Below, piece by piece: positions 6,381 through 64,000 of a DNA stretch of 64,000 nt. The notes beneath the pieces are model-generated. The model was not told the DNA's origin. It did not search any database and saw only the letters and a program-made list of their open reading frames with translations. The translations under genes and the position numbers were made by a program. Every line of letters starts with the position of its first letter. Positions within the stretch are counted from its first letter, which is position 1. This stretch comes from Nemertoderma westbladi (lineage: Eukaryota > Animalia > Xenacoelomorpha): assembly GCA_032718475.1 (NCBI GenBank), contig JAUCBJ010006769.1:1-64000 (forward strand). The letters are read 5' to 3'.

Positions 6381-6391
6381 TTTAAATTTAT

Positions 6392-7957: not shown

Positions 7958-7972
7958 TGGAGATGCGTTCGG

Positions 7973-9184: not shown

Positions 9185-9644
9185 AAATCTAAAACAAAAT
9201 AAAAATAAATAATAATAGTATATGAATTATGAAGCAGTGATAGGTGACTGCAATTGAACTGTTACACCATGCCCTGGAATATAATGTCTTAATTAAATTC
9301 GATATAGATAGGACTCACTTCTTACTTATAAAATAATTAATCGCGCATTATTTAGGCCTATTACATTTTAATACAATTTACTACACCCTTAAGATTTATT
9401 ATAATTTATATATTTTATGCGATTTGTGCTTAATATAGTATGTATTATATGAACCTTGATGGTTTGAATAAAATAAAATAATAATAATAATTCAGTAGTT
9501 TGGTCCCCCCACCCAAAATAAAAATATTTCTACAAATCGTAATGAGATTGCATGAAATTTAAAACAGAGATAGTTACATCTCCGAGCTCCGACCACTTAC
9601 TGGGTGAGCCAGAATTTTTATTTTTGCTTTCATTCTTTAGCTAC

Positions 9645-13370: not shown

Positions 13371-13468
13371 ATAATAACTAATAATCACGAACCCCATCCT
13401 CTTATAATATATAACTCTGTAGTAGTCAGTAGTAGTAGTAGTAATAGTAGTAGTAATAGTAGTAGTAG

Positions 13469-19800: not shown

Positions 19801-22800
19801 GAGGGCCAAGGTAAAGTATTGACACTTCAGCATATTCATGACATGATAGCCACAGACGCAGTAGCAGAGATGAAATCAAACTTCTCAGAAGAGAATATGA
19901 GAGAGTCTAAACCTGTTACCGGTAAGTCTATGGTAAGTTTTGACGACGACAGGACCACTGTGACATTTAACTCAGTAGACAGATATAATTCGAGTACCCC
20001 AGCCTTTAGATCAGACTCGCGAGTATGGTCAGGTGAGCGGTTAGATAGACCTAGGTTAAAGCAACAGGAGTTGCCGGATGGATTTGCAGGTTGCCAATAC
20101 TGCTTACTAAAGGAGGTAAGATCTGACGACCATAAGTTAGATAGTTGCAGACGGTTCAAAGAATTAAATTCGGAACAGAGAAGAGTTCAAGTGCGGACGT
20201 TGGACACCTGTTGGGCATGTCTTGCGCCAGGTCATGTACGGCGGCAGTGCCCGAACAGCAAGGACGGATGCATGGAATGCGGCAGACTACATCACAAGTT
20301 GCTACATGCGGATTTCCACACCCCAACGGACCGTTACTTACAGCGAAATCCTCACAGGAAGGGGAGCAAAGAACCCGTATCGATAAGGAGGAATACGTAC
20401 ACTGGCATCCAGGACGATGGTTACCAACCAGGTTCGTCGGACGAGGATGGCGAGTCGAGCGCGAGAGAAGTGACCTGCCAAGGTTTCACCGCGGATAGTT
20501 CATCGACCAGCGCGCGGACGTATTTATCATCGGCCACGTCGGAAATATTTAGCGTGATTCCGGTGAAACTCACTGGCGATAAGGGATCGAAGCGAATATA
20601 TGTGATGTTGGACACTGCGTCCACATTATCCTATATCGACGAGGAAGTGGCGAGAGCCGTTTCTAGCTTCCAGGACGCCGAGGAGATCCAAATAGAGTTG
20701 AAGTCTATGCATGGGGTAGGAGACCTCAATGGACACAGAATTTCGGTGGAACTAGATTCCCTACTTCCGAGAGACCAACACACTCGACAAGAATGGAAAG
20801 CTTTGCCATTGGACGGATTTAAGTGTCTAGCTATGAAGGGATTCGGCAGGCAGTTAGGTAAGGTGCCGCCGATGAGTCCCATAGCACAGGAGTATTTTGA
20901 CAAGCTCAGGATACCCAGACACCAGGTAGGTTATAGGAATGTTTCTATGTTGATTGGTGCAGAACAGCTGATCGCACACCAAATATGGGAAACGAGACCA
21001 GCTGAGCCGCATGTCAATGGACCACATGCCCATAGGACTATACTAGGTTGGTATACAAGAGTACCCATGTCTTATGAGTTTACAGGTGGCGACAAGCCAA
21101 CAAACAGATACGACGAATTACAGCCTATAATTCAACCACCGTTAGTAGAACCACCAGACATAGACGAGTTTAGGAGAACCTGTATTGACCACTATAGTGA
21201 CTTTAGCGAGTCGGACGAGGAGTTGATTCCCGATAATGTTAGGTTGTCGGAACCACTTCATAATGACCGGACAGATAGTGAACCCGAGGACTACTGTTAT
21301 CAGACCCGTGGGTCTGGTTCAACGGTCCACGCTACCTATTTGACTAACGTTTTGACTTATACAGACATAGTGGAGGGTCAAGTGGCTAAATATCGAGACC
21401 TAGACATTTTCCAATACAGTGAGGAGGAATTACAGAAGGAATTGATACGCCAGGACCTCGAGACAGGAGCCAGAACCGTCGAATGGCTGGATAGGGACGC
21501 AATGGAACCCGGTGGATATGACCTAGCCATGTCTACTGATGAGAAACGGTCGCTGGAGATGATGGAAGACACCATACGTCTGCTACCGACTGGACATTTT
21601 GAAGTTGGAATGTTGTGGCGTCGACAACCACCTAAGTTGGAGAACAACTACAGCTTAGCCTTGAAAAGATTAAACGGAGTAAGGGCTCGGTTGTTGAAGA
21701 ATCCGGACATTAGGGAGAAGTATTGCGCCCAGATCAACAACTATTTCGCCAAGGGATTTGCTGGGAAGGTAGAGGACCCTGACTTAGTGACAGACCAGAC
21801 TTATTACCTTCCACACCACTATGTGACTCACCCTGACAAGCCAGACAAAGTCCGAGTAGTCAACGACTGCGCAGCAGTCTATAGAGGTATGTCCCTGAAT
21901 TCAGAGTTGATGGATGGTCCCAACCTGAACAATTATTTGATAGGAATACTGTTGCGTTTTAGACAGCGGCGATTCGCATTTACTTGTGACATCGAGGCGA
22001 TGTTCCACCAGGTAAGAGCCTGTAAGGCAGACCAGGATAGCCTTCGATTTCTCTGGTTTGAGAATGAAGACTTATCCGGCCCAGTGGTTACATACCAAAT
22101 GTACGTTAGGATATTTGGCGCCCGCGATAGTCCAAATGGCACGCTGTTTGTTCTAAAGAAAACGGCAACAGCCCAGATTGGTAAGTATCCAGTAGAAGTA
22201 ATCGAGTCCATCTTGAGAAACTTCTATATGGACGACGGATTGGTGTCCAAGGACACGGCGGAACAAGCCATAGAAGTGGCTCACGGCCTGCAAGAGTGCT
22301 TGGCTACAGGGGGTTTTCCTCTGACCAAGTTCACTACGAACTCGGAGGCCCTATTAGAGTCGTTCCCGGTAAAAGATCGCGGGAGCGGAGACATAGAATT
22401 GGGGGTAGAACCAATCCCCATGGCGCGAGTACTGGGACTCGCTTGGAACCCGAACTCAGATAAGTTCCAGGTAAGAGTTAGATTTGAGCCCAGTAGCCCA
22501 GACAAAGTTTTGACAAAGAGAATTTGCTTATCGACTTTAAGTAGACTATTTGACCCGATGAACTTTATCAGTCCGGTTATATTACAGGCACGAGCGTGCA
22601 TGAGGAAAATTTGGTTGTCCGACGTAGAGTGGGACGAACCAATATCTCCTATACATGCAAAGCAGTGGAGGGAGTGGGAAGCCGAGTTGCATCTATTGAA
22701 AAACATAGATGTACCCCGTTCCTACTTTCCGAATCAGCTGGTATTTCCAACTGATTTAGAGCTGCACCTATTTAGTGACGCAAGTGACACCGGCTTTGGT

Positions 22801-25200: not shown

Positions 25201-25939
25201 TGTTGGACGCAACTCACTTCGTATGCATTCCTCGTATGCAAATACAAGGAAATGCATAGGAGCGGGGTTGTGGTGATTTGCGTTGAGTTTTGTCTGGTGG
25301 GTATCAAAACAAAATTTTATTTTCAAAATTTTTGGAAAATTAGAAAATTTTAAAAATTAGAAGTGAACCCAAGACAATTCCAGACGCTGTGTATAGACGC
25401 GTTTTAGAATTCGTCTATAGATAAACAGTAATTTGAAAAGTCGTGAAGCCTGGAAAATAGCATTTAGAAACCATGGTGACGGCTATATTACGTAGGAGTG
25501 TAAATTGAGTTTAGCAACTTCCACAGATTGGTGCCAACAGTGCAACTAAGGTGCTAAAGGTTAGTAGCACCAGAGGCGTACATGGACCCCACTCAGTAGT
25601 TTGCAGGATGTGTGATGTTCGATTATCAAACCTGTGGGTTTGGTATAGTCGAGTATTGTGGCTATAGTCCTTTCTAACTACTGTAGTTTAGTAACGAGTA
25701 ATGGGAGTAGTTTGGGCATCAAAAAGTGAGTTGGTCACGGCCAGTTTATCTCCAAACTTTTTGCGCTATGCATGGGAATAGGTTAGAGAATAGTTAGTTA
25801 GGAAGAGACGGGATCTAGAGAGTCGAACCTGAACTGCTGGAAGGCGGGGGGGTTCGGGAGGTCTGTCCTTCGGCGACATCTAACTGATTACCCACAGTGT
25901 AATTGGTTTGCGTAACGGAACACTTATTGGGATATATAT

Positions 25940-27024
25940 GTATATACGCGGGGCGTAATAGAGAAGGATATTAGAGCGCAACCGCGCAGGGGATTTACTG
26001 CCAGAGAGGAGGCGGAGTTACCATTCGCGCGACCGGGATGTAAAGATTCGAACGTTTACTACCATGGGCGGTCGGTGATGGAGCTAAATGGGAAATACAA
26101 ACCCACGATTCCCGACCGACTAGACGAGCAACATCCAGAACCGATATTAACGCGTTGTCAAGCTCACCAGTTCCTTAGATATAACGAGGGAGGTTACCCG
26201 ATGAGCGACCCGATGATCAGTATCGACTTCGGCGAAAGCGACCTCCGAGACCCATTACGCCGACCGTTACGACTTTAGATCCGTATACAGAGATTAAACC
26301 TGTTCGACACCCGCTTTGATAGACACGGCGGCGGCCATTTCGCTATACCGAGCCTATAAAGACCTAGAGGCGCGGCGCGAAGCGGTACGGGACTCGAGTT
26401 CCTGGACCACGTTCACTTCGCTTCACCAGGAGAGGAAGGTCACGCCTGAGTATCCAGGCGAGATTCGCGCCGTCCATCCGTCTACTAACTATACCCACGA
26501 TCCGCGGTTTATACGATATTTACTCCAAATTATTTCGGGAAGTTTCGACGAACGCATTATTAAGCCCGAATATGTCCAATCCTTTATATATCATCGTCGC
26601 TCTGATATATACGTCTAGATTTATTACCCAGCGCACAATTGGCGGCCTAAGGAGACTCGTTTGGGGTCATTGACCTCTGAACGAGTGGAGGATCAGGACC
26701 GCCGCGCCCACAGCGACAACAGCCGGAGCTCACAGCTCGCGGCAAGTACCAGAAGGAGGAGTCCTTGGCAAGCGTCAAGCCAAGGACGAGCAGTTCTATT
26801 CGACGGTTGAAGAAAAGGAGTTGGCGGAGGCGCCCACAGGGACACGGCAAATGGGACGAGGCCGAGGGAGGAGCACCAGTCAGGAGATAGTCGGTGCCCA
26901 GGGAACGTCGTCGCCGGTTCCGGGAAGTGACGCCTCAAGGACGCCGTCAACAGAGTCTACAGGGGGTAGACTGGTGTATCTGGAGAAGGGAGCGAGCCCG
27001 AGAGACCCAGGAGCTAGCCGATGA
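25940..27024 (+). pseudogene. Decayed accessory ORF of element A, homologous to 52230-54544
   Basis: Homologous blocks PRRGFTAREEAELPF, PEPILTRCQAHQFLRYNEGGYPMSDP, SLYRAYK, HDPRFIRYLLQI and GRGRGRST, split by stops and frameshifts. ATA lies where B has ATG. Confidence 0.8.
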
Positions 27025-27887
27025 GACTATAATATCACGGAGCGACAAACTCTAGACATATACATCATCGTCGCTCTGATGTATATCGTAGGTTTTGATC
27101 AATCATTCGACTGGACTCATATACACTAGTCGTATCCATATTTTAGAATTTTATTTTCGAAGGCCGAAAAATATTGAAAGGAAATACTTTATTTTGTAGT
27201 CCGATTGGAAATAGTAAATACTTTAACTATATTTGATTTTGTGTATATGACTTTATTTGCTCTAAAGTTTATTGAAAGAGGCAAAGGAAGTGATTGGGGA
27301 GACAAACCCGCGGGTTTGGCTTACTCCTATCACTTACCTGAGCAATCATCAAACCAAGATGATTTGCGCTTTTATAAGAAATTAAGTAAAGTCCGAAAAT
27401 GAAAGAAATTATTACGTATTTTATATTTAGTTTGATTATCGGCCTTTAATGCAATTTAGTTAAAAATTTAGCCTCAAATACGTTTATATTTAGTTTATCT
27501 TGTTAATGTTGATCGTTAATTTGAGATGGGAAATGGGGGACATTGTCCTAGCCATGTTCCATTTCAATAGGTAGACAGTCAATTTGTAAATAAATAAAGG
27601 AAGTAATATTTTTGTAATTTAATTTTGTATGTAGTAATCATTATGTAGAACGAATGAGAAACAGTATTTTGTAAATTTAATTTGTATGTAATAATCGTTA
27701 ACAGTGAGAGAGATAATATTTTGTAATTTTAATTTGTATGTAAATTCATTATGCAATATCTATGGCAATATTTGTAAATAGTAGAATTATTATGTTATTT
27801 AGATTGGTTGGAAGAAATTTATTTTGTTTTGTATACATCACCTTATACTCTTCTACAATTGGAGGGAAACATTGTATGATTTCCCTT

Positions 27888-27894
27888 GGAGCGG
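27888..27894 (+). other. Plus-strand priming tract (GGAGCGG) of element A
   Basis: Directly abuts the 3' LTR TG. The same heptamer abuts the LTR of B (51421-51427). Confidence 0.7.
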
Positions 27895-29995
27895 TGTTAC
27901 GGTATATGGCGCTGTATCCATATTATTAGTCATCATGCAGTATGCAATATTAGTCCGTTATACTGTACGTAATATTAGTCCGTTGTGCAGCATAATATTT
28001 TAGATAAGGCATAATGACGCAATGATATTTAGATAGGGAAATCGGAACGCCCATATATTTGCATCCATTCATTTTGTATAGTATGTAGCCCTACCTACGT
28101 AATTTTGTATTAGGTTATATGTAGATAGTTCCAGGGTAAGTTTATTCGGACCCTGGATTCCGTGCTTGCTGATATTAGCTTTAGTAGGGCTAGCATATAG
28201 GGACGCCGTCCTGGCCATTCAGTAGCCAGAGACGTGAACCATTACCATATATGGTAATAATTTGAGCAATAGGGCTACAATCCGGCCTCCTTATTGGATT
28301 AACTGCTTCCAGGTTGGTCTAATGCTAGCATGGACTGGAGAGCCAATAGGAGAGCGATTGAGTCACCCTATTGCATCATCCCACCCGGATCACCTATAAA
28401 TTGGCGGTGTGCCGGTAGAGCCTGTTATCAATCTCTCACTCACATGACACATTCTCACTGCTGTTGAGCTGTCTCTAATTTTGTATTAGGATATCGTACT
28501 TTCTGCAATTTGCTAATTTGATTTTTTTCGTGAAATGATTTGCTAGTGCGATTACTTGCTTGTGTTTCTCAATAATTCCTTCGATTACTGCTAATTACAA
28601 TTGAACTATGATTTCTACTCTTTGATTAATGGTTCTATGTGATTCTTTTCTGCGCAATAATCCTAAGGGATTTCTGAGACTGTCAGACTTTGTGATTTGC
28701 ATGCGCCGCTACGGTAGCTATTAGCATAATGGAGGGCTAAGGTGCCAGTGGGCGGTGGGCTCATCGGGGGGTTAGCGACGAAGGGAGTGCGGAGGATTCA
28801 AAAGCGGGCAACGCTGGCGGGGGTCAACGTTGTGGTCGGGCAGTTTGGACTGTGGGTTGGAGACCGCTCGCCGGTACAGTAATTAGGGGGCTGATGATCC
28901 AAGGTTTTGTCTCTATTTAGTATTAGGGGGCAGGAATTGGGTTAGTTAGGAAGCCTAGATGTACCCGGGAGGGGCCTGCATACCTTACAGTAAGTAAGTA
29001 AGGGGGTAAGTACGTAAGTAAGTTGCGAATTATATAATTGCAGATTGTATAATTGCAAGTCGTGCTATTGTGATCCGTGATTGCTGACTCTGATTGATGT
29101 GTTACTAAAGTGTGCCTAAGATTACGAATGCTTAGATAGGCGCTCTTTTCCCTTTGATTGATTTCTATCTCTTAGTTTACTGTAAATAATTACTGATTAG
29201 GTCAAAGTAATACAGTATTTTAGGCTGTTACATATTTGTGACTGTAATTAATTAGTAAAATTAAGAATTAGTACGCAGCATAGCGGAGAGTAGCTAAGGT
29301 AATAATTAGAGTACCGTAAACTATTCACGCTGAGCGGTTATTTGAATTAGCGGGCAATAAACTAGATCGCAATAGTTAGTACGCAAGACACTAGTAAGTT
29401 GCTGGCCTAAAGCCAGCTGCAGGCAAGTTTAGACCCAGAGCGGTAACACCTACGAAAGACATTGTACTGTATCATTTTGATTATTTTAAATATTCTCGCA
29501 TTCACACATTCCGTTAGGGAACCCTCAGTATTCGCGATTAGAAAAGACGTAAGCATTGGCGTATTTCAGTAGTAAAATTAGGCGTAAGAATATACTCTGA
29601 GTGCAAAGCCCCTCGCACTCGTCTTAAGTAAGCTTAGGGAGCCGACTCGGGTTTATTGTTTTGGTTATTCCCGCGTGGCTCATAGATTCGAACAGTTAGC
29701 TCTCTATCGAGCGATCGGTAGAGAAAGGAACAAGCGATTTTGCAGGAGCTGTGTAAATTTAGTAAAATATATTAGCGGACGGCAGATTAGCGCCATCCAA
29801 CGGTAAGTAGCGGTTTTGTATTTAGCAACCCTTACAATTTAGTAATAGCACACTCCTGATCCCCTTTACTTAACAGTAGAGCAGTCTTTGTGTCTTATTG
29901 GTTAGGCGAGAGCTCATTAGGTTGGCAGAGAGGTATACGGGTATTTGTCTGTTCAACAGTTCTGCTGTTAGTATAGGTGTCGCGGTTGTTTAACA
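27895..29995 (+). repeat. 3' LTR of element A
   Basis: Direct repeat of the 5' LTR, followed by the TSD. Confidence 0.98.
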
Positions 29996-49505: not shown

Positions 49506-51420
49506 TGGAGAGATACGCCTATTCCTACTATCGGAAGAGACGGTAACAATACCTGCAATATCCTACTGTAAAGTTTGTAAATCAAATCATAAATCCGACC
49601 TTCTCACCAAAACAGTAAACCCTAAGTAAGCGAATATATTGCAGTATCGATCTCTTTTAACCGGTGAGGCAGAAAACAGTCTACGAGCAGACAAACTTCG
49701 ATAAAACAAAATCCCGCGCAGCGAATCCTAAAATCAGGCTGACTCACTGACGGACTAAGGGGCTCGTATACTTTGCCGCGGTGTGATTTATATGGTTGGG
49801 CAAAGGGACGCTAGCTAGGTATAGAGCAGATTTGGAGATGGCTAACTAGCGAGCAAAGTGCAGTAAGGACGAAAGTTAATTTTATATATTTCGAGGTGTA
49901 AATAATTTCTAACGCGCGTGTGTTAATTCTGAACGGTCAAAACAGTTTTGCTCCTTCACATATATAATTACTGGGTACGGTGTGCATTTTACGAATATTC
50001 TAATTTTATAACTTGTAGGTCCAATACTCACGAATGATAAGGTTCCTTCCCCTCTTGCGTATTTCCAGGACTCAAATTCAGGCATAAGGTTAATACTACG
50101 CCCAGAATTCGGCAATTTTAGGTACCAGGTCCCTGATACTAAGAAGAGATGTGTTAGTTTACTACTGTAGGCGTACAGGTACTAATAGCTATCCTGGCTC
50201 CTATCTAGAATTTTAGTCACCCAGGTAGTCCGGGTAACTTCCTATTAGGGCGTTGGCGGGGACACGGTAGATGTTAGTATATCCCTGATAGCCTCAATTT
50301 ATTTGCGCCTAGCGTAAACTGCCCTACCGCCTGAACGGTACAATCCCAATTCAGGTGAAAACACAGCAACCCCCCTAGCCTACAAGTTCTGATGTAATAG
50401 ACACGGTCGTACTGCAAATAGTCGCACACACACCTGTACTTAGCAAGAGTTAAGCGTACAGTTTGCTGCACCCTAACCAATGTGTATGCCTTGTACCGGT
50501 GTGCCTACGTCCTATCTGCGTACTAGTATCTGCTCTCTCTCCTCCCCCCCCGTAGGAATATGAAGGTCTACTGCGGTTTTTCCCTGAATCAAGACAGTAC
50601 AGTCCCTATGATGTAATTTTAGGCTTGCAGCGTGTCACTACGTCTACCTTTGTATCTTTTGGTCTTACACTTAGGTAGCAAGGATCGAACGCTGTCTAAC
50701 CTTTCAGGCGATGGGCGAATAACTAGATGGTATTGCGGGTTGTCTCTCGTCTACATTCCCGTGATGTTCCCGTTCATTGCTGTGGCCCGATCTCTAGCTG
50801 GCCATCCTGTCCCTGAGTTTGTTCACCGTAGTGAAACCATATTAAAACAGATAGAAAAGCTGAGAGATGTGACTAGTATTTTTGACTTTATTACAAAACA
50901 TATAATAACTATTATACAATAAACAATGTAATCTGAAATAAGACAGAAAGTGAATGATGGAAATTGAGATTAGTAATTGATAACTAATGAACGAATCGCA
51001 CCTTTATATACTAAATTTGTGCCGCAATCAATCGAGAAAATTCTCGATTGTTCTATGGGTTCTAACAAGGTTTTAAAGATAGCTTATTGGTCCAGCTAAT
51101 ATATAACTTGCACGACATTGGTTACAATCAAATAACTACAGCCTTATTGGTACAGACAAATGCAATTAATTTGTAGCGGTTAATTTAAATGAGTTGAAAT
51201 TCTGCACAAAAAATAATTCGCACTTACTAGGATTCGAACTCGATACCTACTACACTTATAATTTCCAACGCTCTACCAACTGAGCTACTGAACCACTTGA
51301 CCGATAGATACATAATAGATAGAACCAATACTAATGAGAACTCAAAGTAATCTTTACAAAGTTAATTCGAATAAAATAAAATTTTGAAAATCCACGGCAT
51401 TTAGGGAATATAATTCTATA
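49506..51420 (-). repeat. Putative 3' LTR of element B
   Basis: Starts right after CATGGAGCGG (begins TATAG rather than TG) and has CCAAT/TATA. The distal end is inferred from the junction with the MITE at ~49500 and a terminal CA. Confidence 0.55.
51205..51295 (-). ncRNA. tRNA-like Pol III unit within the LTR of B
   Basis: A box TAGCTCAGTTGG, perfect D arm GCTC-AGTTGGTA-GAGC, B box GAGTTCGAATCC, then TTTTTT. Confidence 0.55.
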
Positions 51421-52229
51421 CCGCTCCATGAAAACAGGATATTATCGTGCATAAAATATACGGTTTTCACCAATAATCAATCAAACTATAGAATACTTAG
51501 GGCGTACTTACATATTTACAATTAAATTTCAAACAATACTTCCTTTCTTCGTAATGATTCGATACAAAATAATTACAAATTCAAACTTTACGTATTTAAA
51601 GGCTTTACTAAGTAAGTACAATATAAATCTAAATTAAATTCACCAATATAAATCTATTGCATCTCAAATATTGCATAAATTCAAACAATTACAAATACAA
51701 ATAAATGTAAACAATAAGAAAGGCTCGCAAGTCTTCCATCTACTATTGCATCCCAAATATTGCATAAATTCAAGTAATTACAAATACTTTCGTACCTAAA
51801 TGTAGATTGCATAAGTTTGGAATAATTACAAATATGAGTCTTTCTGAGCACAAAATTTTCTGTCTATATAACTTTCTCTTTTACACTGTAAATACAAATA
51901 CTGCTTATAAAATATAGTATTCGGAACAATACAAATTGCATAAGTTTGGAATAATATTGCATAAGTTCGGAATAATTACAAATATAAAATATAAATTCTT
52001 ACTAAATATAGATCTTACTAAATATAAGTCTTTACTTAAATATAAATATAAACTGCATAAGTTTAGAATAATATAAACCTTTGCATCTCAAATATGAAAC
52101 ATAAATCTTTCAAATATAAGTTCCTTCTAAATATAAACTTTGTTTTCTAAATATAAAACATATAATTCAAAATAAATCACAAATCATAAGAAAGGCCCAC
52201 GAGTCTTCCGTCCACCCTTGCCCTCCCTT

Positions 52230-53666
52230 TTATCGCTTAGTAGATCGAGCCCTGCCGCGTCCTCGAAAACTGCGCACAGGTGACTTTGCTCGCGATATGG
52301 GACTAATGGGGCGAGTCACTGGTTTACTTGGGACGTTGAGAGACGGTGCGACTATTTCCTCACAAATTCGTCTATTTGGCATCCCAAAACCTCGACCAAT
52401 TCCTCGTGACCGATCAGTTGTGGCTACAGTCGGTAGAACGTCTGGGAACGCGTGAGAAGCGGACGACGCAGACCCAAGAGTAGCTTGCGCCCCCTGTTGA
52501 TCAGCTGGTGTATGTCCCGATCCTCCTACCGGTTCTCTTGGAAGTGATACCGTATCCCGAGTAACTCGAATAGTCGGCTCAACTCCCTTACGTTCTTCCA
52601 CATTAATAATTTTCTTCAATTGTTGGCCCACCTTCTGGACCCGTATGATCCTACCCTGCCCGTCCTCCCGAGGGTGACGTGCAGACGGCGCAACCGGAGT
52701 GGCTGGTATATTCGTCGCCTCTAGGACCTCTTCTTCCTCGAATACGCTCGCTCGTATACGTTTATGGTAAAACGCGGCTCGGTACGCCCATGCGACGGTT
52801 AACCAAGCTCCTTTATTCCGCTTTTCGGTTCGGAAACGATCAAATTCACCATACGTGATACGATTTACGACTTTCTGAAAATTCCACGTGTTCTTGTTAT
52901 CCGGGTGAATCTGTAACAGATACTCGCGCACCACTCGGAATCCGCTGTCGTGGGGCAAAATATCAACAACCTCGATAAGTTCGTCATATTGGGGCATAGC
53001 GGAGATATATCCTTCCGACATCATCGTCTGAGGATTTACCGCCCAAAATCCGAGATGCGCTCTCATCGGAAACCGTCTTCTCTGTGCCGATACATGTTCG
53101 TCGGCTAAATCTTCCCACTCATCAAATAACTTCCTCACGAGTTTTACAGATTCGTGTTCATAAGGTATGTCTCTCAGTTGGCATTCAGATGCTCGATGTC
53201 CCTTTATATTGCAGTAAGTACATTGAGCCATAAATCTCCAGCAAGTATAAAAGGTATGAGACCCTTGATCCCCACACCATCCACAGATTAGCTGAGTCGT
53301 AGTAATGTGCTTTCCACTGCACTTTGCCATATGATGTCCAGCGACGCCACATTTACTACACATCGTATTAGCAGGGTACCACACTCGTTCGTATATAAGA
53401 TCTCCAATCGGTCGAGCGCTTCCTCCCATACTATAATCGTAATCATCTGGGTCTATGGGTTGGTAGGTTTCTGAAGGTTGTATACAAACTATAGCATCTG
53501 TTGCTTCGAGTTGTCGAATCTCCGTCTGAGATTTCTTCGGGAGGTTCCTTTCTATCTCAAGAAGTTCCTCTAAAGGATCGTCGGCGATCGTAGTAGTTAC
53601 GTTGAATTCATCACCAAGGTGACCGATAGGCGCACGCGTCTGCCGTGATTCATCCGTAATCTCCAC
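52230..53666 (-). CDS. Accessory protein, C-terminal part: three CCHC-type knuckles and an RG-rich basic tail
   Basis: CSKCGVAGHHMAKC, CGWCGDQGSHTFYTC, CTYCNIKGHRASEC; RGRGRARS. Overlaps the upstream ORF, so probably one frameshifted gene. Confidence 0.75.
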   Translation of the reverse strand: MEITDESRQTRAPIGHLGDEFNVTTTIADDPLEELLEIERNLPKKSQTEIRQLEATDAIVCIQPSETYQPIDPDDYDYSMGGSARPIGDLIYERVWYPANTMCSKCGVAGHHMAKCSGKHITTTQLICGWCGDQGSHTFYTCWRFMAQCTYCNIKGHRASECQLRDIPYEHESVKLVRKLFDEWEDLADEHVSAQRRRFPMRAHLGFWAVNPQTMMSEGYISAMPQYDELIEVVDILPHDSGFRVVREYLLQIHPDNKNTWNFQKVVNRITYGEFDRFRTEKRNKGAWLTVAWAYRAAFYHKRIRASVFEEEEVLEATNIPATPVAPSARHPREDGQGRIIRVQKVGQQLKKIINVEERKGVEPTIRVTRDTVSLPREPVGGSGHTPADQQGAQATLGSASSASHAFPDVLPTVATTDRSRGIGRGFGMPNRRICEEIVAPSLNVPSKPVTRPISPISRAKSPVRSFRGRGRARSTKR

Positions 53667-54544
53667 GATACGTTTTGAGCAAAGTTTATGCTCTCGAAAA
53701 CTTCCGGTGTCATCTCCTTAGCTGAAGTTTGATCGTGTGACGTCCAATGGCAAGGTAGGCTCGCGAGTCTTCCACCCCATTCTTCCATCTCACCTTTCTC
53801 GAAAGCCTTGTAGGCTCTGTATAGGCTAAGAGCTTCTTTCTTTTCGCGGGTTGACTGATTCGCCTCGTCCAGCGTAAGTTCAAATACATCGGGTTCAACA
53901 ACCTTAGGTGGGTAAATGACAGTTTCTCCCGCCTTTGGTCCGGTCATAGCAAATGAGTGATATGGATTCGATAAAGGATACCCTCCTTCCTGGTAGCGTA
54001 GTTGTTGATGATTCGAACACCTCGCCAATATCGGTTCGGGATTTTCCTTATTCAAACGCATCGGAATCGCATTTCGTTGTTCGCGCATACAAGAACCGCA
54101 TTGATAATAAAGTTTATAAACTGAAAATGCTTCTTTGGTTTCTCTATCGTCCCCTCGAGTTCGTCTGTAAAGATGCATTCCATCGAATTCATCTCTTACC
54201 GCGGGCATAGGTTCGTGCGCCTTTAGGTATTGCATGGTATGATACAAACGACTAATTTCAGTATCGGGGTCTTCGCTAATGTCTCCCGTATCACACAAAG
54301 CGTCGTACGGGTAAAGTTCATTGAAGGTTTGGCGCAAACTTTCGATTCTTTCGTTTAATGCGTTTTGCCTTCTCTTTAATACATTCGAGTCATATTTAGT
54401 TCTCGCGAGTTTCGCTGTACTTTCCGATAATTCTTTTATACCAAATATAGTATAATCCTTGGCTCCAAATCTTTCGAATGGCGCTGCTGCCTCCTCTTGG
54501 ATATCATATCCCCATCTCGGCTCTCCTTGTGTCCCTTTCTCCAT
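53597..54544 (-). CDS. Accessory protein, N-terminal part (unknown function); probable start MEKGTQ
   Basis: Long open frame with a homolog in element A; preceded by a branch point and acceptor. Confidence 0.7.
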   Translation of the reverse strand: MEKGTQGEPRWGYDIQEEAAAPFERFGAKDYTIFGIKELSESTAKLARTKYDSNVLKRRQNALNERIESLRQTFNELYPYDALCDTGDISEDPDTEISRLYHTMQYLKAHEPMPAVRDEFDGMHLYRRTRGDDRETKEAFSVYKLYYQCGSCMREQRNAIPMRLNKENPEPILARCSNHQQLRYQEGGYPLSNPYHSFAMTGPKAGETVIYPPKVVEPDVFELTLDEANQSTREKKEALSLYRAYKAFEKGEMEEWGGRLASLPCHWTSHDQTSAKEMTPEVFESINFAQNVSWRLRMNHGRRVRLSVTLVMNST

Positions 54545-55210
54545 AATTAGAGGTGTAGTTACATAATCATTACTACTAGAGGGAATACAACAGAGTTTGT
54601 GGTTAGTTGTGAGGAGACGTGAGAGTTTCGTCTGCCCTTTGGGCTTCGACAACGCTCTAACCTCCTACCCATAGCCTAAGATCTAGGGTTTCTTTAATGA
54701 CACGCTGCTTCTTATCTAAAATTTTTTTTTTGCCGAAGTAAAAACGAATTTGGGCTAAACTGGCCGTGAGTCTAAAATACTCACTTTTTGATCCCAAACT
54801 ATTATCAGAAAATAAGCAATCAAGAATTAGTAATAAATATAGGGGAGTCAAATTTGACGTAACTTATTGAAACAAGACCGTGTAAAATTTAATTAAAATT
54901 TTTAAGAAAGGCTCGCAAGTCTTCCTCTCTTGTTTCTCTAATTTTAAGTTCCACCCGACTGTACCCTGAAATCTATTCACTGGAGAAAATTTTAAAAAAT
55001 TTTTCAAATCCAAATGGATTGTCTAAAATTTCGAAAATGTCTCAATATTGTGAGTTCCAAGTAGAATTCCATTTCTTATACCTCCAAATCCCGCTCCTAT
55101 GTGACACATAAGGGTACTACCCTCAATGTTCACATATAAAGACAATGGAATTCTACCGCTGTCCTTACTACGGTGTACAGGTACGTGGAAATCTATTTGT
55201 AAACTCCTAA

Positions 55211-58200
55211 TTATTTACTAGTATTAGGTGGAGATTTGTAATCTCCAGACTCGTTACGAGTCTCTTCAAGAAGTACAAGACGTTGAGTCGGTCTGTCTAC
55301 TGTACGACCGTCAATTGTTCGTACCGTCACAGTTCTTGTCACTCCATCCATAGATGGATGTGTGGCTAAAATGACACCTGTTATCCAGAAGCGTCTTTTT
55401 AGATTCACTTCTGCCAACAGCACGTGATCTCCCGGCTTTAATGCGCGGGTGTTATTATACCAGTTTGTTCTGGCAGAAATAGAGGGCAAATAATGGTTTT
55501 GCCATATTTCCCAGAATTTGTTAGCCAGTAGTTGCGTGATTTTCCACGCTTTTCTCCCGTAACTATCGCTTTCCATTGGAATGGAAATCGGTGTCAAAGT
55601 CGTCGGTGCCTGCATTAGCAGGTGTGCCGGTGTCAAAGCAAACTGGGATTGTTTGTCATCGGGTACTAATACTATTGGTCTAGTATTTAGTATTGCCTCG
55701 ATTTCAACAAACAATGTTGTCAGTTGGTCGTCTGTTAATATGTGGTTTACTGGAATGACCTTTGCCATTGCTGTCTTTATAGATCTAATCAGTCTCTCCC
55801 AGACTCCGCCTCTCCAAGGACTATCTGGAGGATTGAACTTCCAAACAATCTTGTGAGGTTGCAGTTCGTTTGAGATTTGATCATGATCTAATTTCTTAAA
55901 GGCTCTAGCAATTTCATTCCGAGCACCAACAAAGTTTGTCCCTTGGTCTGAGTACAAGCATTTTACTAGTCCGCGTCTAGCGATAAATCGCCGCAGTGCT
56001 AGTATAAACGCGTTGGTGGAAAGATCCATCACACGTTCAATGTGAACTGCCCTACTGGACATACATGTGAAAATCAGTCCCCAGCGTTTTACTAGTATGC
56101 GTCCACGTTTAGTATGTATGGGACCAAAGCAATCAATTCCAGTCTCTGTAAAAGGTGGTCTGAATGCTTGAAGTCGTGCTTGTGGTAGTTCACTCATTTC
56201 TTGGGTACCTATTCTAGAATGTACCTTTTTACAAATAATACACGTACGTGTCACTGAACTTAATGCTTTACTGGGTCTAATTAATACAAATCTAGTACGT
56301 AAGTAGGAAAGACAGTGGTGTCTTCCAGCGTGTTTCAGATGTAGATGTGCGTCCAGTATCATTGCACGTTGTAGTTCGTGGTGTTGCGGTATTATTATTG
56401 GGTACCTAAAGTTCGTGTTAAAGTCAATGTTTTGAAGCCGAGATTTATGACAAATTAAGCCATTATAAATTATCGGACTCCAACTCAGTATCGGTGACGA
56501 CTTGATTGGTTGACCTTGATGTATAGATGTGAATTCGCGCGCGAAATATCGCAGTTGATAATGGCGAATTAATATAATCTCACACCTGTCAATCTCAGCC
56601 AATGTAAGTCGACGTGTGAAGTCACGTTTGCCTTTAACGTATTGTACAAAACGTACAATCCACGCTAATTTTCGGCAAGCGTTTGACCAAGAGTCTGTTA
56701 AGTTTACAATACGGTCGACGTAAGTATTTGTGACGTCATCAGGTAAGTCAATGGAGAACTTGGAAGGTTTTGAATTACTAGAAGGGCCCACGGGTCCGCC
56801 GGTAAGTATTCCCTTGTTGACTGTTGATCCGTCCGGGTCTACAAGTAATTTGTCCTTCTTTGTCTTCTTACCTTGATTGTCGGTACTTTGTAAGTCGATC
56901 GCTAATGGTGGTTTGAACTCTATGGGGTCAGCAGGTTTTGGTAAACTTAATTTTCTGCCGACATTAATCCCAGGTCTCAACGTAGGTTGCAAGTTCGGTA
57001 TGTCTCTTGAGCGCAAAGTAACACCTGTATTTACATTAGCGTAGGTACTACCCACATCTGCAATACATGAGGTTTCACCATGCTTATGGTTGCTCAAGTG
57101 TGTCAAAATTGGTAGTTTGTCAATACAAGGCCGCTCCAATAGAGAAACTGCGGCTTTATTGTTAGTCAATACATTACTAGTGTCTAGTCGACTGTCTAGT
57201 AGTGTGTCTGGCGATACGTCTGGTAACGTATCTGGTTGTTTGTCAATAGAAGGCCGCTCCAATAGAGAAACTGCGGCTTTACTGTTTGTCAGTGCGTTTC
57301 TAACGTCTGGTGGAACATTTTGTGATATGTCTGGCAAAATGTCTGGTTGGCTGTCTAGTAACGTGTCTGGTTGACCGTCTGGCGATATGTCTGGTTGACC
57401 GTCTGGCGATATGTCTGGTGTAGAAAGGCTCGCAAGTCTTCCTCTCTTGACCTTTGAAGTTATATCCTTCCATTTTGCCTTCGGTTTCTTCTTGAGTTTC
57501 GCCGCCGTTGTCTTTTTCTTTGTATCGACGGGCATTGTTGGTGTCGTTGGGGTAGGTAGACTCGCAAGCCTATCATCTGTCGTCGATGGAATCTCTAGCT
57601 GACTCGTCTTCTCCCCAAGTTCTAAACTCACCTTGTGGATTAGCTGCTCCTTGTGACTTATCATACTAGTTACACGTCTGTTATGTTTTGTATGTAAGGT
57701 AGTATGGTCTACGTCGTGTGAAAAGGAATGAATTGAATTTATAGTTAATAAACTACATGTACTCTGTACATCGTCTTCCTCGTCACTTACGTCTAGTGTG
57801 CGCACAGGCGCTCGAGTATACCACCCTATCGGCGTTCTGCAGGCGTATGCGTTTCCTGCTACAACTGTCGATGGTCTGGTTTCCCACACCTGATGTAGGT
57901 TGAATTGGTCCGTCCCGATCAGCATTGCTACCGATCTATAATTGGCAGGACATTCGGGTACACCAAGGTGTCTAAAATACTTACGGTCCTCTAGAGATTG
58001 TGCCGGCACTGGACCTAGTAGGTTACTAAAGTCCTTCGTGGCCGCAAAGGTTAAATCTCTAAAGGGTAACAAAGACCTCTCCCTCTCGCTGTGTTGCGAT
58101 TTTGGAAGAAGAGAGTCTAAGTCTAACTTAACTCGTGTCACTGGTATTGCACGCTGTCCGTGCATACTACTTACTGTATAACTGACGTGCTTACCTTGTC

Positions 58201-59129
58201 TAAGATCTGTTACGACGTCAGCTATCTTTTCATCTACGTAACTGTGAGATGAGGCTGAGTCTAGAATCGCGTAAATCCTCTTACTTCCTTTTGTGCCAGT
58301 AACTTTAATCGGGATTACACTGAATCCCTTCAGTTGGTCAGTGGTCAGGAGCGCGATTGACGGTTGTTCGTCTCCATTTGAATATTCGTCGTCTTCTGAT
58401 TCTTCGTCCGACGATCCGGATTGTTCTGAAAAGCAATCCTCTATATGGGTCACGAAAGTCGGAGTCGTTTTCGATTCCCGTTTTCGGTAAGCCGCATCAC
58501 ATCTCGCTGCTGCTTCCGGGTGTTCCCTGGCGAAGCGTTTCGTCGGCGTGTGGCTGTCTGTGTGGAGCAGACCGTCGTGGTTGCGTCCACAGGATGGACA
58601 AGTGTCGGTATTTGGGCAATCCTTACGGACGTGTCCGTGTCGCGTACACCGCCAACAAGAGTCCAGTGGCCGTATCTGCAGCCGTCGTTCTTCTGAGTTC
58701 AACTCGCGAAATTGTCGACAACCTCGTAACTTGTGACCAATATACCGCTTACCTAAATGTTCGCAGTATTGGCAGCCGTTGAAGTCGGCGCTGAGTTGCT
58801 GTCTCGTCTGTTTCGTTCCAATGGGCGCAGATACTCTATTACCGTCTGAGAATTGTCGTGATTCCGTCGGTGTGGCGTAAGTGGCCGTCTTTGTGGATGT
58901 TGTCTGGGGTTTTTGTCGGTTGGAGGATGGCAGTGTGATCCCTTCTGCCACGATGTGCTGGTCGGTATAGTTAGATCGAGTCTCTACTACCGCCTCCCTG
59001 GATATTAAAAGGTACACATCTTCTAATTTTAGGAATCCTCCTCGCTCCTCTCGCTGATATTCGACCTTCCTCCACTCCCGACGAAGTCGATGGTGGAGTC
59101 GTCCTATTATCTTTAATAACGCTTGTGTC
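55211..59129 (-). CDS. Element B polyprotein, 3' part: Gag knuckles, protease, linker, integrase (no RT/RNase H)
   Basis: CWRCTRHGHVRKDC, ILDSAS, RTPIGW, low-complexity linker, HAG..CIIC, DCFGP, SDQGTNF, WERLI. No YxDD or DAS motif. Confidence 0.92.
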
Positions 59130-60316
59130 CTTTTGGGCTCCTCCCCGAGGCGCACCCATGAGGCGGACACCTTTCCACCACCCCTGGGGCCAGTCCGACA
59201 GATGTTATTATCAGACCGGGCCGGAGGGTGGCCTGATGCTTCCCGGGTTCTGTTTTCGGTCCCCCGATCACACCAGCACAGCTCGTCGAACGTGTAGCCA
59301 GATGGGCGGCTACTGTCAACTTACTGTGGCCTGACTGTACATTGAGCCAACTCAAAGTATAACAAAGAGTCAACCGGCAGGTGGACCAGTCGATAGCGAT
59401 CGAGCACCAAGGTCGCCCTTGGGCCTAACCGACGGTCTTGTCCCATGTGGGCTTGCGCTACCCAACATGGAATATTGACACGTTTTCACCTGCCTCGCCG
59501 GCAGTATTGAGGGGACACCGTTCCTCAACAATACTGACTAGCTCGAAAGCTAGAAACAAGTAACCACTTACCCGTCCTGTACACGTGTACTCAACAGATG
59601 TTCACGAAATCAAGTACACTACGGTAAACACAAATCTGACACATACCATGCACACACAGAGGACATAATCGGGTAAAGACAAAATCGGGGTCAAAATCAG
59701 AAGGGACAAATTGTATCGATCGGAGGCAAATCGAGAGTACCTTACTTTGCCGTCAGGGCAAAATAACTTTGTGTGCACAAAGTATGCTGGGGTGCAGTAA
59801 AGTATGGTCCTACTAATACCAGCGGCGTCTTGTCCAACTGGTAAGGGTTCCCATACCCACTCGCAGTGGCCACACATACAATCACATGTACTCACGTACC
59901 CACAGCAACAGAAAGCTCAAAGCCCGACGGTTTATTCCAATGCCACCAAAGACCAATCAGCTGAACATGGAGACAATAACATATAGTATCAAAAAAACGG
60001 AACAGCTGATGGTCAATGGAACCATCCAAGCCCCAAGCAAACTGCCACTGATCGCCCACATACAAAACATAGTCCACGCCACATGAACCACAAATCACGC
60101 CATGCCACCACCCCTACTGTGTACAGGACTGGCAGTACGGCAACAGGCCGACTAGACGGTACCACGGCACCATGGCAATTCATGGTTCGTTAGACACGAG
60201 GGCCTTAAGTATCTCCCTAGCACTATATACCCCAATTTAACGTGCCCCCAGACCCTCACGAGTCCGCCGCCGCCTGTTACAGTCACCCCTATAGAGACCT
60301 CACCTCTTTAGGTAAC
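59130..60316. mobile_element. Unclassified 1187-bp insertion in gag of element B
   Basis: Flanked by TGTC at 59126-59129 and 60317-60320. Removal restores YGNTPTQALLKIIGRL in frame. Confidence 0.8.
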
Positions 60317-63232
60317 TGTCGGGGTATTTCCGTAATCCAGTTGTCCAATTGATCTTAAGGTAGTGATAGCGTTCTTAATCTCGTCGGCCAGTTTTAGTAA
60401 GTCGACGGGTTTAGTGATAGCCCCTCCCTTACAGAGTTCTTCTATTACTGACCTGGCCATACTTACTGTACCTCCGTATATCGAAGTCAAACGATCGTAC
60501 GCTAGTTCGAAAGCGTCTGGTACACCGACGAAAGTCTCCGCCAAACGTTTAGGTTCTCCTGACAACGTTTGGAGCAAGTAATTGAACTTCTCTCGTGACG
60601 TAAAGGCGCACACGGCGATCTGGGATTCGATATAGTCTACGAAGGTATGCCAGTGTTTTGAGCTACCGGAGAACTTCGGTGGTTGTTGTACCGGCAATCC
60701 CTGTCTGGCTGCGAATTTCGCTATCTCCTCGGCAACGTTCAGAGTTTCGCGTCCTTGGTTGGTAACCTGGTTGATGTTCTCCCTTCTAGGCGCTTTTCCC
60801 TGATACGATGTGGGGTTTGAAGGTACCGGTCTTTGTGGTCCCTTCGGGTGTCTATTGTGTTCGAATTCGGAATTTCTCGAACTGTCGGTGTAACCTTCCT
60901 CCAGACGTTCCTCGATCTGAGCCAACTTATTGACAACTGGTCGCAGAATGTCGGCGAACTGTTGTGTACTAATTGCGTCCGTTGGTTGTAACGCCTTCTG
61001 TGTTGGTGTATTCTGTGGAGGATTGTCTGCAAAGGAGTTGTCTGAACGCTCGCGTTTATATTCATCGGCCGCCCCTGTTCTAAATACCTCGCGTTTCGGG
61101 TAATCCGATTCGCTCGAAGTACTACTATCATCTGGATATGGTGGTCGACGTGCTCGCGTCCGTTGCGTCGTTCGAATTCTAACGGCTCGTTTCGGAACAT
61201 CGTCCACTGTTCTTCGTTGTTCGGTAGGCTCACAAGTCTTCCTCGAAGTCGTAGATTGCGATGTAAACTGAACCGGTCGCGTATCCACTGTTCTCCGTTG
61301 TTCGGTAGGCTCACAAGTCTTCCTCGAAGTCGTAGATTGCGATGTAAACTGAACCGGTCGCGTATCCACTGTTCTCCGTTGTTCGGTAGGCTCACAAGTC
61401 TTCCTCGAAGTCGTAGATTGCGATGTAAACTGAACCGGTGGGCGAATGACAGCATTTGAAACCGCTGGCCTTATAGGTCGAAACGTCATTGGATAAGCGT
61501 AATGTGTAACGGGTTTAGGTGTCAAAGGTGGACTCACCTGTTTTGTCGTCAGTAGTGCGGGTCCGGTCAATAAACTACTACGATCCGTAATCGGTGGGTT
61601 ACTTACCTTGACTCTCGGAATAGGCGACGACGTTGCTCTTGGCGGTATAAACTCGTTCGGAATAACAAACCTATGTTCCGTCGCACCATGGATAGGAGAA
61701 ATATCACTACTACCCGCAATCGAAACAGGTTCCTTAGTCGTAACCGGTGCAAACATATGAGTTACCTGTGGGAATCGTTGACACACGTCTTTTACTAATT
61801 GTCGTTCCCGTCCGGGTGCTCCTACGCTTCCTTCCTTCTTCCGTTCCTGAATTTGGCGATGTCTTACCTCTAACTGGTCCAAATCATGTCCGTCGCGAGA
61901 TCTCATCGATCGATCGCGGGCTAGAAGATCCAGATTTTCCTTAGTTTCGGCTAATTCTCTCGCCCTCTTCTCAAGTTCGAAACGAAGTTTAACTTCCTTT
62001 TCTCGTTGTTCCGTTTGTTGTTGTTGCGCCTCGAACTCTGCTTGTCGTATCGCTTGTTGGGCTTTTATTTGCCGTGTCTTCATCTCGACTCTGGCTTCCG
62101 AAACTAATCTTTGTCGCTCTAACTCTGCCGCAGCCGTTTGTCGCTCTAACTCTGCCGCTGCCGCTGCCGTTTGTCGCTCTAACTCGGCTGTTGCCGTTCG
62201 TTGCGCTAACTCGGCCGCTGCCGCTTGTTGGGCAATGTCCAACTCTAACCTTTCCATTTCGGCCGCTTCGAGTTCGGCTTGTTCCTGCAGATGAGAGATT
62301 CTCGCTACATTCGCAACACGTATTTTCTCTTCCTCTACTGCTGTTTGTATCATTAGAAGTTGAGCTTGTTCTTCCATCTCGTGTTGCTGTCTGTAGAACT
62401 GTTGCTGTTGTCGAGCAACTTCTGACGTGACTATACTTCCCTCGCAGATTTCGCTACGAATACTTACCAATGATTGATTTAGTATTCCCGGTGCCGATTC
62501 GATTTGTGCGAATGGAGTTTCCCTCGTGTATTCCGACACGGTTTCCAAATCGCCGACGTCTTCGCCGCACATGCGTAAGTGGTCCGTCAGGTGTTTTAAT
62601 TGTCCATCCAGTCGGTACAGTTCCTGTTCTTCCTCGGGTTGTAATAATTCGTCCGAAACTGACTCACCTAACAACTGGTCCGCTTGTTCCTGTTGTATCT
62701 GTCTAATCGTCGACTTAAACTGAATCAGTTTCTCTCTAGTGATCATTAGTTTCTCGAGGATTCTAAGTTGAGTATCCATGTCCTGTCTCTGTCTAGCTAG
62801 ATCTTGTAGGCCAACTAGATTATCTACGGACTTATATACTTTACTCTGTACTCTAACCTGGAGGGTGTAGAACTCGAATCGAGACATCGGAGCGGTCAAC
62901 CCGTCTAATATGCGTTGGCCTTCTCCAATGCTCCTGGTTATATGCGCCATATATCCTCCGACGCTTCTAACCACACTTTCTGTGCTTCCTGCTGAACTTA
63001 CCAATTCCGTTTCCCTATGTCTAGGTTGCGGAACAGTTAGAAAGTCCTCGGTCCTGCCGTCGCCTCGTACTACGGCATCCGGTACTCCCGTTGGATGTAC
63101 TGGTGACGCACACGGTGTAGGTTCGGTAGGCTCGCGAGTCTTCACCTGTTGTTCTTCCGCTGCTGACTTATCTCCGTCACACGAGTCATAGTCGGTTTGT
63201 GTATTCTTCGTATAGTCTTGTTTGTCACTCAT
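60317..63232 (-). CDS. Element B Gag, N-terminal part (coiled coil + DUF1759-like)
   Basis: IAKFAARQGLPVQQPPKFSG...EKFNYLLQ matches element A. Contains an 81-bp triplication at 61200-61440. Confidence 0.92.
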
Positions 63233-64000
63233 TTCGGTAGTTGTAAGTCAAGTGAAGTGAGTGTCAAAGTATCGAGTTTACCGTATTTGTATAAGACGGT
63301 ACTAATTACAGTCATATAAAATTAGCCTACCGGCCGATTTTATAGCAGATGGATAAAATTAGCCTAAACGGCCAATTTTACAGCAAATAAATGTCACGGG
63401 ATAAGTATATAATAAAATTAGCCTAGCGGCCAATTTTATAACAAATAAATCGGATAACGATATGCGTTATCAAAAGGTAAATTAAATACAATAATACGGA
63501 CTAATTCAGCAATGAACAAAGAAATCATACGTAATGCATAAATACTTGAGACAGTGGAACCCACAATAATTTTAACTAATACGGTAATGCCTAACTTATT
63601 TATGCAACTTTTCGAACTCACCCACTCCAATAATTCTCCAGAAAAACAGATTCCCAGATACAAACCGAACGTGAACCTTTCCGTTTTTAACGTTGCGGAC
63701 GAAACGCGATTTTCCCAACCAAAGTTGTTGAGTTATCTATCTCCCAAACTTGCTAAACACGGTCTTGCTCCCGTTACAGTCTAGAAATGAGTTCTGAATC
63801 CTGAAAAAACAAAAGAGTTAGGTTTTACTTTTACGAAAAATTTTGTACCGGTACAATATGGTATTTAAACCCTTTTTAAACACCGGTATTCAATTCCAAA
63901 AATATTTTACACGCGGTTCAAATCAAATTTTATTTCAAAAAATTAGCACTTAGCTAATCAAATACAAATTTTTACCTCAAAATACAAAATTTTCAAATAA

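Follow-up and report, generated by a model that had tools for sequence, protein, structure and literature searches.

A probable non-env third-gene region with a candidate spliced message and a predicted nucleic-acid-binding product in a BEL/Pao retrotransposon of Nemertoderma westbladi

We analysed a stretch of 64,000 nucleotides from Nemertoderma westbladi (contig JAUCBJ010006769.1, positions 1 to 64,000; the whole stretch is called the window below). It carries two elements, A on the plus strand and B on the minus strand, both of which belong to the BEL/Pao long terminal repeat (LTR) retrotransposons (Belpaoviridae). Behind pol of element B lies 52230-54664 (minus strand), referred to here as the third-gene region or ORF3 (ORF, open reading frame). 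At slightly better than even odds (about 0.55), we read this as a lineage-specific gene region that is not env, no env features being found in the parts present, and that is expressed from a spliced subgenomic RNA and encodes a predicted nucleic-acid-binding protein. The best-supported description is that of a gene region, comprising one gene or two, which is accessory to a very large BEL/Pao family. It is through extra genes behind pol that retrotransposons have come by virus-like abilities, and a spliced non-env gene with zinc knuckles would add to BEL/Pao a second kind of extra gene, beside the env-like one.

Anatomy and coding signal of the third-gene region

The region occupies the env position, downstream of a BEL/Pao pol, and 666 non-coding bases lie between the pol stop and its first long frame. 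Two open frames are found on the minus strand, 53597-54664 (355 codons) and 52230-53717 (495 codons), the second being the -1 frame relative to the first, with an overlap of 121 bases. Such lengths are not chance: when the region was shuffled 1000 times, stop-free runs reached 298 codons at most (mean 93), against 495 in the real sequence. From the ATG at 54544, across the break between the frames and on to the stop, the two parts make 290 + 479 = 769 residues. The downstream part carries three zinc knuckles (residues 120-133, 145-159 and 166-179 of the 495-codon frame), two with the pattern CX2CX4HX4C and one with CX2CX5HX4C, and it ends in a tail of 155 residues (341-495) that contains arginine-glycine (RG) repeats and is made up of 13.5% R, 10.3% P, 9.7% S and 9.7% G. 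Such knuckles and tails are typical of cytoplasmic or nuclear nucleic-acid-binding proteins.

Neither an N-terminal signal peptide nor a transmembrane segment was found in the parts present in the window copy. The start of the region is hydrophilic on the Kyte-Doolittle scale, no hydrophobic segment was seen (the 19-residue mean peaks at 0.47 for the upstream frame and at 0.62 for the downstream one), and a Pfam search matched no env family. The same database returned no gag or capsid family for ORF3 at expect values (E) up to 0.1. Compared directly with the gag-pol of both elements, ORF3 showed no likeness beyond chance, the best match being at a knuckle with an E of 0.14; ORF3 is therefore not a duplicate of the gag-pol of B or A. 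Three contig records run without break from pol into the start of ORF3. An earlier reading of the window from its letters alone (the sequence-only reading) had described a split ORF of about 770 residues in the env position of a BEL element, with three CCHC-type knuckles, an RG tail and no obvious signal peptide or transmembrane segment. All of this is borne out, by frame lengths, pattern, composition and hydropathy and, for the BEL/Pao setting, by the gag and pol domains. Its view that the gene is not env also stands for the parts present, and a match to a known env or to a gag nested from another element, which would have told against that view, was absent in every search.

The in-frame codon usage of ORF3 resembles that of gag and pol taken together (cosine 0.87 and 0.90 for the two frames, against 0.78-0.81 for the off-frames), and the GC content at third codon positions (GC3) is 0.40 and 0.42 in the ORF3 frames, 0.435 in gag and 0.414 in pol. 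We also considered differences between the window and other copies, using the best 40 of 389 well-supported rows, of which 34 fall in the four frames and the 6 outside were left out. Among these rows, all four differences in ORF3 are synonymous and at third positions, as compared with 19 of 27 synonymous in pol and 2 of 3 in gag. This small sample points to possible selection on the ORF3 protein during the spread of the family.

Candidate splicing of the third-gene message

Contigs of four public runs (X1, X2, X3 and X5) were placed on 50500-64000, and the best 15 of 34 joints there were viewed, together with the best 15 of 101 for element A. In a single X3 contig 63622 is joined directly to 54575, so that 9046 bases are skipped; the joint has CT..AC ends on the plus strand, that is, GT..AG on the coding strand. 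The sequence-only reading had proposed an acceptor at CTAAC...TATTCCCTCTAG, which ends at 54576 in element B, and a counterpart in element A, CTAACTGATTACCCACAG, of the form CTAAC...CACAG and ending at 25897. Both motifs lie where it had put them, and the first is the acceptor used in this joint, with a donor in the leader at 63622. The spliced contig has a depth of 210.9 and 30 letters on its shorter side, as is expected of a junction-specific contig of a 31-mer graph, and an unspliced X3 contig over the acceptor (54523-54993) has a depth of 200.8. The gag ATG follows the donor at a distance of about 390 bases, and the 379 exon-1 bases inside the window hold no ATG. The first ATGs past the acceptor form a three-codon mini upstream ORF (uORF), ATG ATT ATG TAA, and the next start is the ATG at 54544, where position -3 is A and position +4 is G. 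Whichever kind of run X3 is, donor 63622 and acceptor 54576 have been used together; if X3 is RNA, the joint is a spliced subgenomic message.

X3 leaves 4 of the 30 bins of element A without cover (19784-21715 and 23648-24291), and these are covered by X1 and X2. The idea that X3 behaves in this respect like RNA was set aside, as missing cover is not evidence. The summed depth of X3 is also far greater over the 3' part than over gag-pol; depth cannot rank gene parts.

The expression of ORF3 might then proceed as follows. The region would be transcribed as part of the element, and a single splice (63622 to 54576) would release it from gag-pol, the joined X3 contig being taken as the spliced message, and translation would begin at ATG 54544, past the three-codon uORF. 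In the window copy, a loss of more than 1 kb at 53670-53674 would have brought the upstream and knuckle parts together in different frames. The product, or products, are predicted to bind nucleic acid through the knuckle array and the RG tail. By analogy with knuckle arrays of the NC (nucleocapsid) or CNBP type that come with an RG tail, the ORF3 protein would probably serve the RNA of its own element, whether by chaperoning it, packaging it or helping its export; which of these roles applies is a guess, and the Rev-like or silencing-suppressor role that had been suggested before is likewise a guess.

A breakpoint in the window copy

The change of frame between the two parts had been attributed to a frameshift at about 53650. 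What we find is not the slip of one base but a structural breakpoint at 53670-53674. In X5 and X2, contigs that match 53670 and upward run into unlike sequence below it (193 and 20 letters), and contigs of X5 and X3 that match 53674 and downward run into unlike sequence above it (74 and 60 letters). An X3 contig of 1887 bases has only 816 on the window (53670-54485) and 1071 off it, and never returns onto the knuckle part. With contigs that depart on both sides, one of them for 1071 bases, more than 1 kb that is present in other copies is therefore missing from the window copy. The frame changes inside the 121-base overlap, exactly at the breakpoint. The five bases common to both sides (53670-53674) are typical of a microhomology junction, and wherever the cut is placed within them, GT..AG ends do not result (read by eye). 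One X2 contig shows a variant in which only two letters separate 54385 from 53671, and the area of 53671 therefore recurs as a break. A microhomology-mediated deletion at this place probably removed over 1 kb of the gene region from the window copy. The split of ORF3 is damage of this copy, and for annotation this means that the split ORF is the product of a broken copy and that the gene has to be described from intact ones.

The summed depth of X3 is 1973-6043 over 52304-53656 and 324-470 over 53657-54558, and that of X1 and X2 is roughly even. The higher X3 depth on the knuckle part could reflect a separate, more abundant message, summed contig depth being a poor measure.

One gene or two, and competing explanations

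The sequence-only reading had held that a remnant in element A joins blocks of both element B frames, which would have made them one gene. This remnant (25916-26278) does occupy the same place as ORF3, behind a similar acceptor-like motif, and it matches residues 34-74 (E 8e-7) and 185-234 (E 1e-13) of the upstream frame; a third short colinear block (26334-26369) lies in another frame (E 1.7), and ATA stands where B has the start ATG. For the knuckle frame, no match was found in element A at E up to 10. The single-gene argument thus fails, because the remnant matches the upstream frame only. We tentatively entertain the possibility that intact copies have the upstream part as a third gene and the knuckles and RG tail as a separate fourth gene, the two being made to abut by the deletion. 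Such an arrangement would suit the retention in element A of relatives of the upstream part only, the more than 1 kb that separates the parts in other copies (the 1887-base X3 contig), and an X3 depth over the knuckle part several-fold that over the upstream part, with the caveat on depth given above. It is less easily reconciled with codon usage and GC3 that are similar in both parts; moreover, neither a further acceptor nor a further start was seen, and the knuckle frame is without an ATG-led start tied to a joint. A foreign origin of everything from the knuckle part onward, in which recombination or template switching at 53670-53674 would have joined on another element or a host CCHC gene that had been captured, is rather unlikely. 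A chimera would indeed give contigs of either part that run into unlike sequence at the break, and the recurrence of this point in the X2 variant (54385-53671) and the unequal X3 depth of the parts (a poor measure) go in the same direction. Nevertheless, a 16-base motif specific to element B lies on either side of the knuckle part, at 52209 (just past its stop), at 51737 and seven more times upstream, and the codon usage fits that of gag and pol; because of this motif and the fit of codon usage and GC3, the knuckle part looks native to B rather than foreign, and no host-like relative was found in protein searches of 90% clusters.

An env-like gene whose signal peptide and membrane anchor were in the lost piece is improbable. 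Some BEL/Pao elements do have an env-like gene at this place, according to part of the family profile (PMC8742986), and the unread piece of the region exceeds 1 kb; against this stand the hydrophilic start, the absence of any 19-residue Kyte-Doolittle mean above 0.62, the lack of an env family match in Pfam, and the presence of knuckles and an RG tail, which typify a different class of protein. Least credible of all is a programmed -1 ribosomal frameshift that would join both frames in the window copy: the second frame is in -1 and the overlap is 121 bases long, as such a mechanism would have it, yet no slippery X XXY YYZ heptamer is present in any frame in 53590-53725, and the change of frame coincides with a two-sided departure of contigs in three runs.

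Searches for relatives gave no firm match for either part. No candidate reached an E of 0.001 or less for the knuckle frame in the 90%-cluster protein search (7994 near-length and 6489 longer candidates scored), and an exhaustive phmmer search of the upstream frame against 1,835,955,588 representatives returned 0 matches. Pattern scans gave 107 matches in metagenomes and 7 in viral contigs, 0 of which were confirmed. Among PDB sequences the upstream frame had 0 matches and the knuckle frame 3, at E 0.79-0.95, the best being an HIV knuckle peptide at 0.79, below significance. The best Atlas scores, 0.87 and 0.82, were below the counting level; the clusters nearest to the knuckle frame are fungal and CCHC/HEXBP-like (0.87), and serve as a lead only. 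Pfam gave no family for the upstream part. AlphaFold2, run without alignment, gave a mean predicted local distance difference test (pLDDT) of 35.2 for both parts and predicted template modelling scores (pTM) of 0.23 and 0.20.

Several of these results weigh against the reading that we retain, a lineage-specific, spliced, non-env gene region with a nucleic-acid-binding product. As there are no relatives and the folds failed, the assignment of function comes from short motifs alone, and the knuckles themselves score 18.1 bits against zf-CCHC (PF00098), for which the cutoff is 20.8. No support was found for the membership of both parts in one frame of intact copies, and the lost piece of more than 1 kb could still hold membrane segments. 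The splicing that had been predicted is seen as a junction contig in X3 and not in X1, X2 or X5 (0 contigs with the 54575-63622 joint); it comes from one contig of one run, of which the kind is guessed as 'DNA?', none of the listed runs being recorded as RNA. Should X3 be DNA, the joint would be the DNA copy of an RNA that had been spliced, and not proof of present expression. For element A, which has a candidate donor AAG|GTTAGT at 16265/16266, no joint from the leader to 25897 is found among the best 15 of 101, and an X3 contig (25752-26385) crosses the acceptor-like site unspliced; the missing joint among those listed is not evidence against such a joint.

Comparison with known systems

Tas, Cer7 and roo, which we take to be BEL/Pao elements with env-like third genes, are the natural comparison. 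Env-like third genes of BEL/Pao likewise lie between pol and the 3' LTR, whereas the ORF3 parts present are without signal peptide or transmembrane segment and have zinc knuckles and an RG tail instead. In the part of the Belpaoviridae profile consulted, the env-like gene that some elements have in this position is the only extra gene named (PMC8742986). Literature searches with narrow sets of words in open-access full text gave no paper in which a third gene with zinc knuckles is described for BEL/Pao.

Family-specific ORF3s that are not env, lie behind pol and are typically expressed from spliced messages are described in LTR elements of bdelloid rotifers, according to excerpts of PMC5408684. 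They differ from the present case in type, being GDSL esterases, DEDDy exonucleases, coiled-coil or transmembrane proteins, and in their hosts, which in the same excerpts are other LTR lineages (Juno, Vesta, TelKA and Mag); the word 'zinc' has 0 occurrences in the text on bdelloid ORF3s (PMC5408684). Closer in function may be CERV of the Caenorhabditis elegans element Cer1, which is, in the portion of PMC10309623 available, an orphan accessory protein with a cysteine-rich stretch, made from a spliced mRNA of the element and required for export of the unspliced genomic RNA. On this partial account, CERV is by analogy the nearest tested example of a Rev-like role. It differs, according to the same source, in its five-exon mRNA, which shares exons with gag, in its G-protein-like domain and in the lack of a recognised RNA-binding motif (PMC10309623). 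The upstream frame of ORF3 shows no sequence likeness to CERV, the exhaustive phmmer search having returned 0 matches. Retroviral nucleocapsid (NC) and CNBP/HEXBP arrays, like ORF3, consist of tandem CX2CX4HX4C knuckles with short linkers in basic or RG-rich surroundings; in ORF3, by contrast, the knuckles are in a separate downstream gene, and all scores are below significance.

For a Rev-like role, ORF3 offers a spliced message, in the form of the GT..AG joint 63622|54575 (one contig, run kind guessed), and for an RNA target and export it offers candidates only: the RG tail, a stem-loop in the intron and a nine-fold motif in sense orientation. At long odds, one could picture a BEL/Pao genome resembling that of complex retroviruses, in which an orphan knuckle/RG protein would recognise its own RNA, by way of the nine copies of GGAAGACTYGYGRGCC and/or the intron stem-loop, and would govern the unspliced genome in its export, packaging or protection. 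If true, a regulator of the Rev/NC type would have been invented independently, outside retroviruses and Ty3/gypsy elements. A spliced non-env gene with knuckles in this family would also be a case, besides that of the nematode Cer1, where an LTR retrotransposon may regulate its own RNA.

Candidate RNA elements

The motif GGAAGACTYGYGRGCC, with up to 22 bases conserved, has 9 copies between 51722 and 63144 (0.02 expected), always on the sense strand. Coding copies are read in two different frames, as RKTCEP (gag) or as GRLASL (pol and ORF3), and three copies are non-coding; because the motif occurs in two different frames and at three non-coding places, it is kept at the level of the nucleic acid. 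Its core, CTCGCGAG, is palindromic, and a tenth, weaker copy lies at 57555-57570, near the breakpoint in the reverse transcriptase (RT) region. The motif may serve as a site of binding, as a target of small RNAs or as a hot spot of template switching.

Only one non-coding block between the pol stop and the ORF3 acceptor is well conserved in both elements, a stem-loop, for which the block in element A is 25706-25760 (plus strand) and the common core there 25718-25748. The core, ATCAAAAAGTGAGT...TCACGGCCAGTTTA, has 2 matches where 0 are expected, and both versions fold into a stem-loop of which the outer stem, GUUUGGG, is identical (z -2.7 and -2.1). As it lies inside the intron, the stem-loop would be present on the unspliced RNA only. 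The block contains GTGAGT.

Shortly past the pol stop of both elements is TAGGAGCGGG (A, 25257-25266, plus strand; B, 55090-55099, minus strand), and GGAGCGG is found again directly before the 3' LTR of element A (27887-27893, plus strand) and in B at about 51421-51430 (minus strand). These may be a duplicated polypurine-tract-like signal that dates from the acquisition of the extra gene region.

Elements A and B and other content of the window

Table 1. Coordinates of the third-gene region, its putative signals and associated features
Feature	Position	Strand	Remarks
ORF3 upstream part	53675..54544, 290 codons	-	ATG 54544 to breakpoint; predicted helical; no family match
ORF3 downstream part	52230..53669, 479 codons + stop	-	open frame
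Three CCHC zinc knuckles	53181..53360	-	pattern; Pfam zf-CCHC 18.1 bits, cutoff 20.8
Basic tail, R/P/S/G-rich, RG repeats	52233..52697	-	composition
Breakpoint of window copy	53670..53674		loose contig ends in X5, X2 and X3; reading frame changes here
Leader splice donor	63616..63622	-	exon end 63622; intron starts GTGAGT (63621-63616)
Acceptor with CTAAC branch-point-like motif and short pyrimidine run	54576..54604	-	AG at 54577-54576
Mini-uORF ATG ATT ATG TAA, three codons	54559..54570	-	first ATGs past acceptor
Element A acceptor-like motif (to 25897) and decayed relative of ORF3 upstream part (25916-26278)	25880..26278	+	protein-level matches
GGAAGACTYGYGRGCC copies	63144, 61404, 61323, 61242, 57442, 54925, 53773, 52209, 51737	-	only in element B
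Conserved non-coding stem-loop	54745..54805	-	between pol stop and acceptor; core 54756-54792
gag of element B	60308..63232	-	DUF1759, E 1.5e-9 (Pfam)
pol of element B	55211..59118	-	CCHC, integrase H2C2, DUF5641; without RT/RNase H
Insertion between gag and pol, this copy only	59119..60314, 1196 bases		contig joints

The window is transposon-rich eukaryotic DNA. Element A (13468-29995, 16.5 kb) is bounded by LTRs of 2102 bases each that are 99.9% identical, and its insertion is therefore young. It has a single gag-pol frame of 2796 codons with DUF1759 (E 4.4e-9), Peptidase_A17 (3.4e-39), Integrase_H2C2 and DUF5641 domains (Pfam). Its size and its 2.1-kb LTRs go beyond the family profile of the ICTV, the international committee for virus taxonomy, which in the part consulted gives 4.2-10 kb for the element and 0.2-1.2 kb for the LTRs (PMC8742986), a described range and not a strict criterion. 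Element B extends from about 51.4 kb past the end of the window. Its open pol frame spans 55211-59320 and includes Integrase_H2C2, DUF5641 (E 9.6e-21) and an NC-like knuckle of the element's own; the Peptidase_A17/RT region was not found in this pol by Pfam search, and element B is thus a deleted copy. An X3 contig departs from the window at 57523, where element A carries RT/RNase H. In place of the lost RT/RNase H, pol of element B has a repetitive DISPDGQP-type linker (57100-57530, minus strand). The two elements are only about 65% identical in their integrase DNA and cannot be aligned elsewhere.

All four runs contain joints (59118 to 60315 or 59119 to 60314) that represent a form without the 1196-base insertion, and its removal restores gag-pol continuity as in element A. 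The insertion looks non-coding, and its X3 depth is above that of its flanks. Run X5, labelled as a different organism, contains the same family, with a likeness to 50500-64000 that is mostly 95-99%, and shares with the other runs the gag-pol joint and the departures at 53670 and 53674; the family is thus common to two organism labels.

Downstream of ORF3, at about 51220-51295 (minus strand), a tRNA-like stretch (GTAGCTCAGTTGGTAGAGCG...GGTATCGAGTTCGAATCC) was noticed, which may be a repeat resembling a short interspersed element (SINE) or a piece of the element B LTR; ARAGORN calls no tRNA gene in the window, and Rfam returned no family in 50000-64000. The neighbouring bin 50951-51401 has the top summed depth in X1, X2 and X3. 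Finally, a Helitron at 921-9226 (minus strand) has Helitron_like_N and PIF1 helicase domains; its frames include 921-7972 and 7973-9226, the latter made of about 20 tandem repeats of 51 bases.

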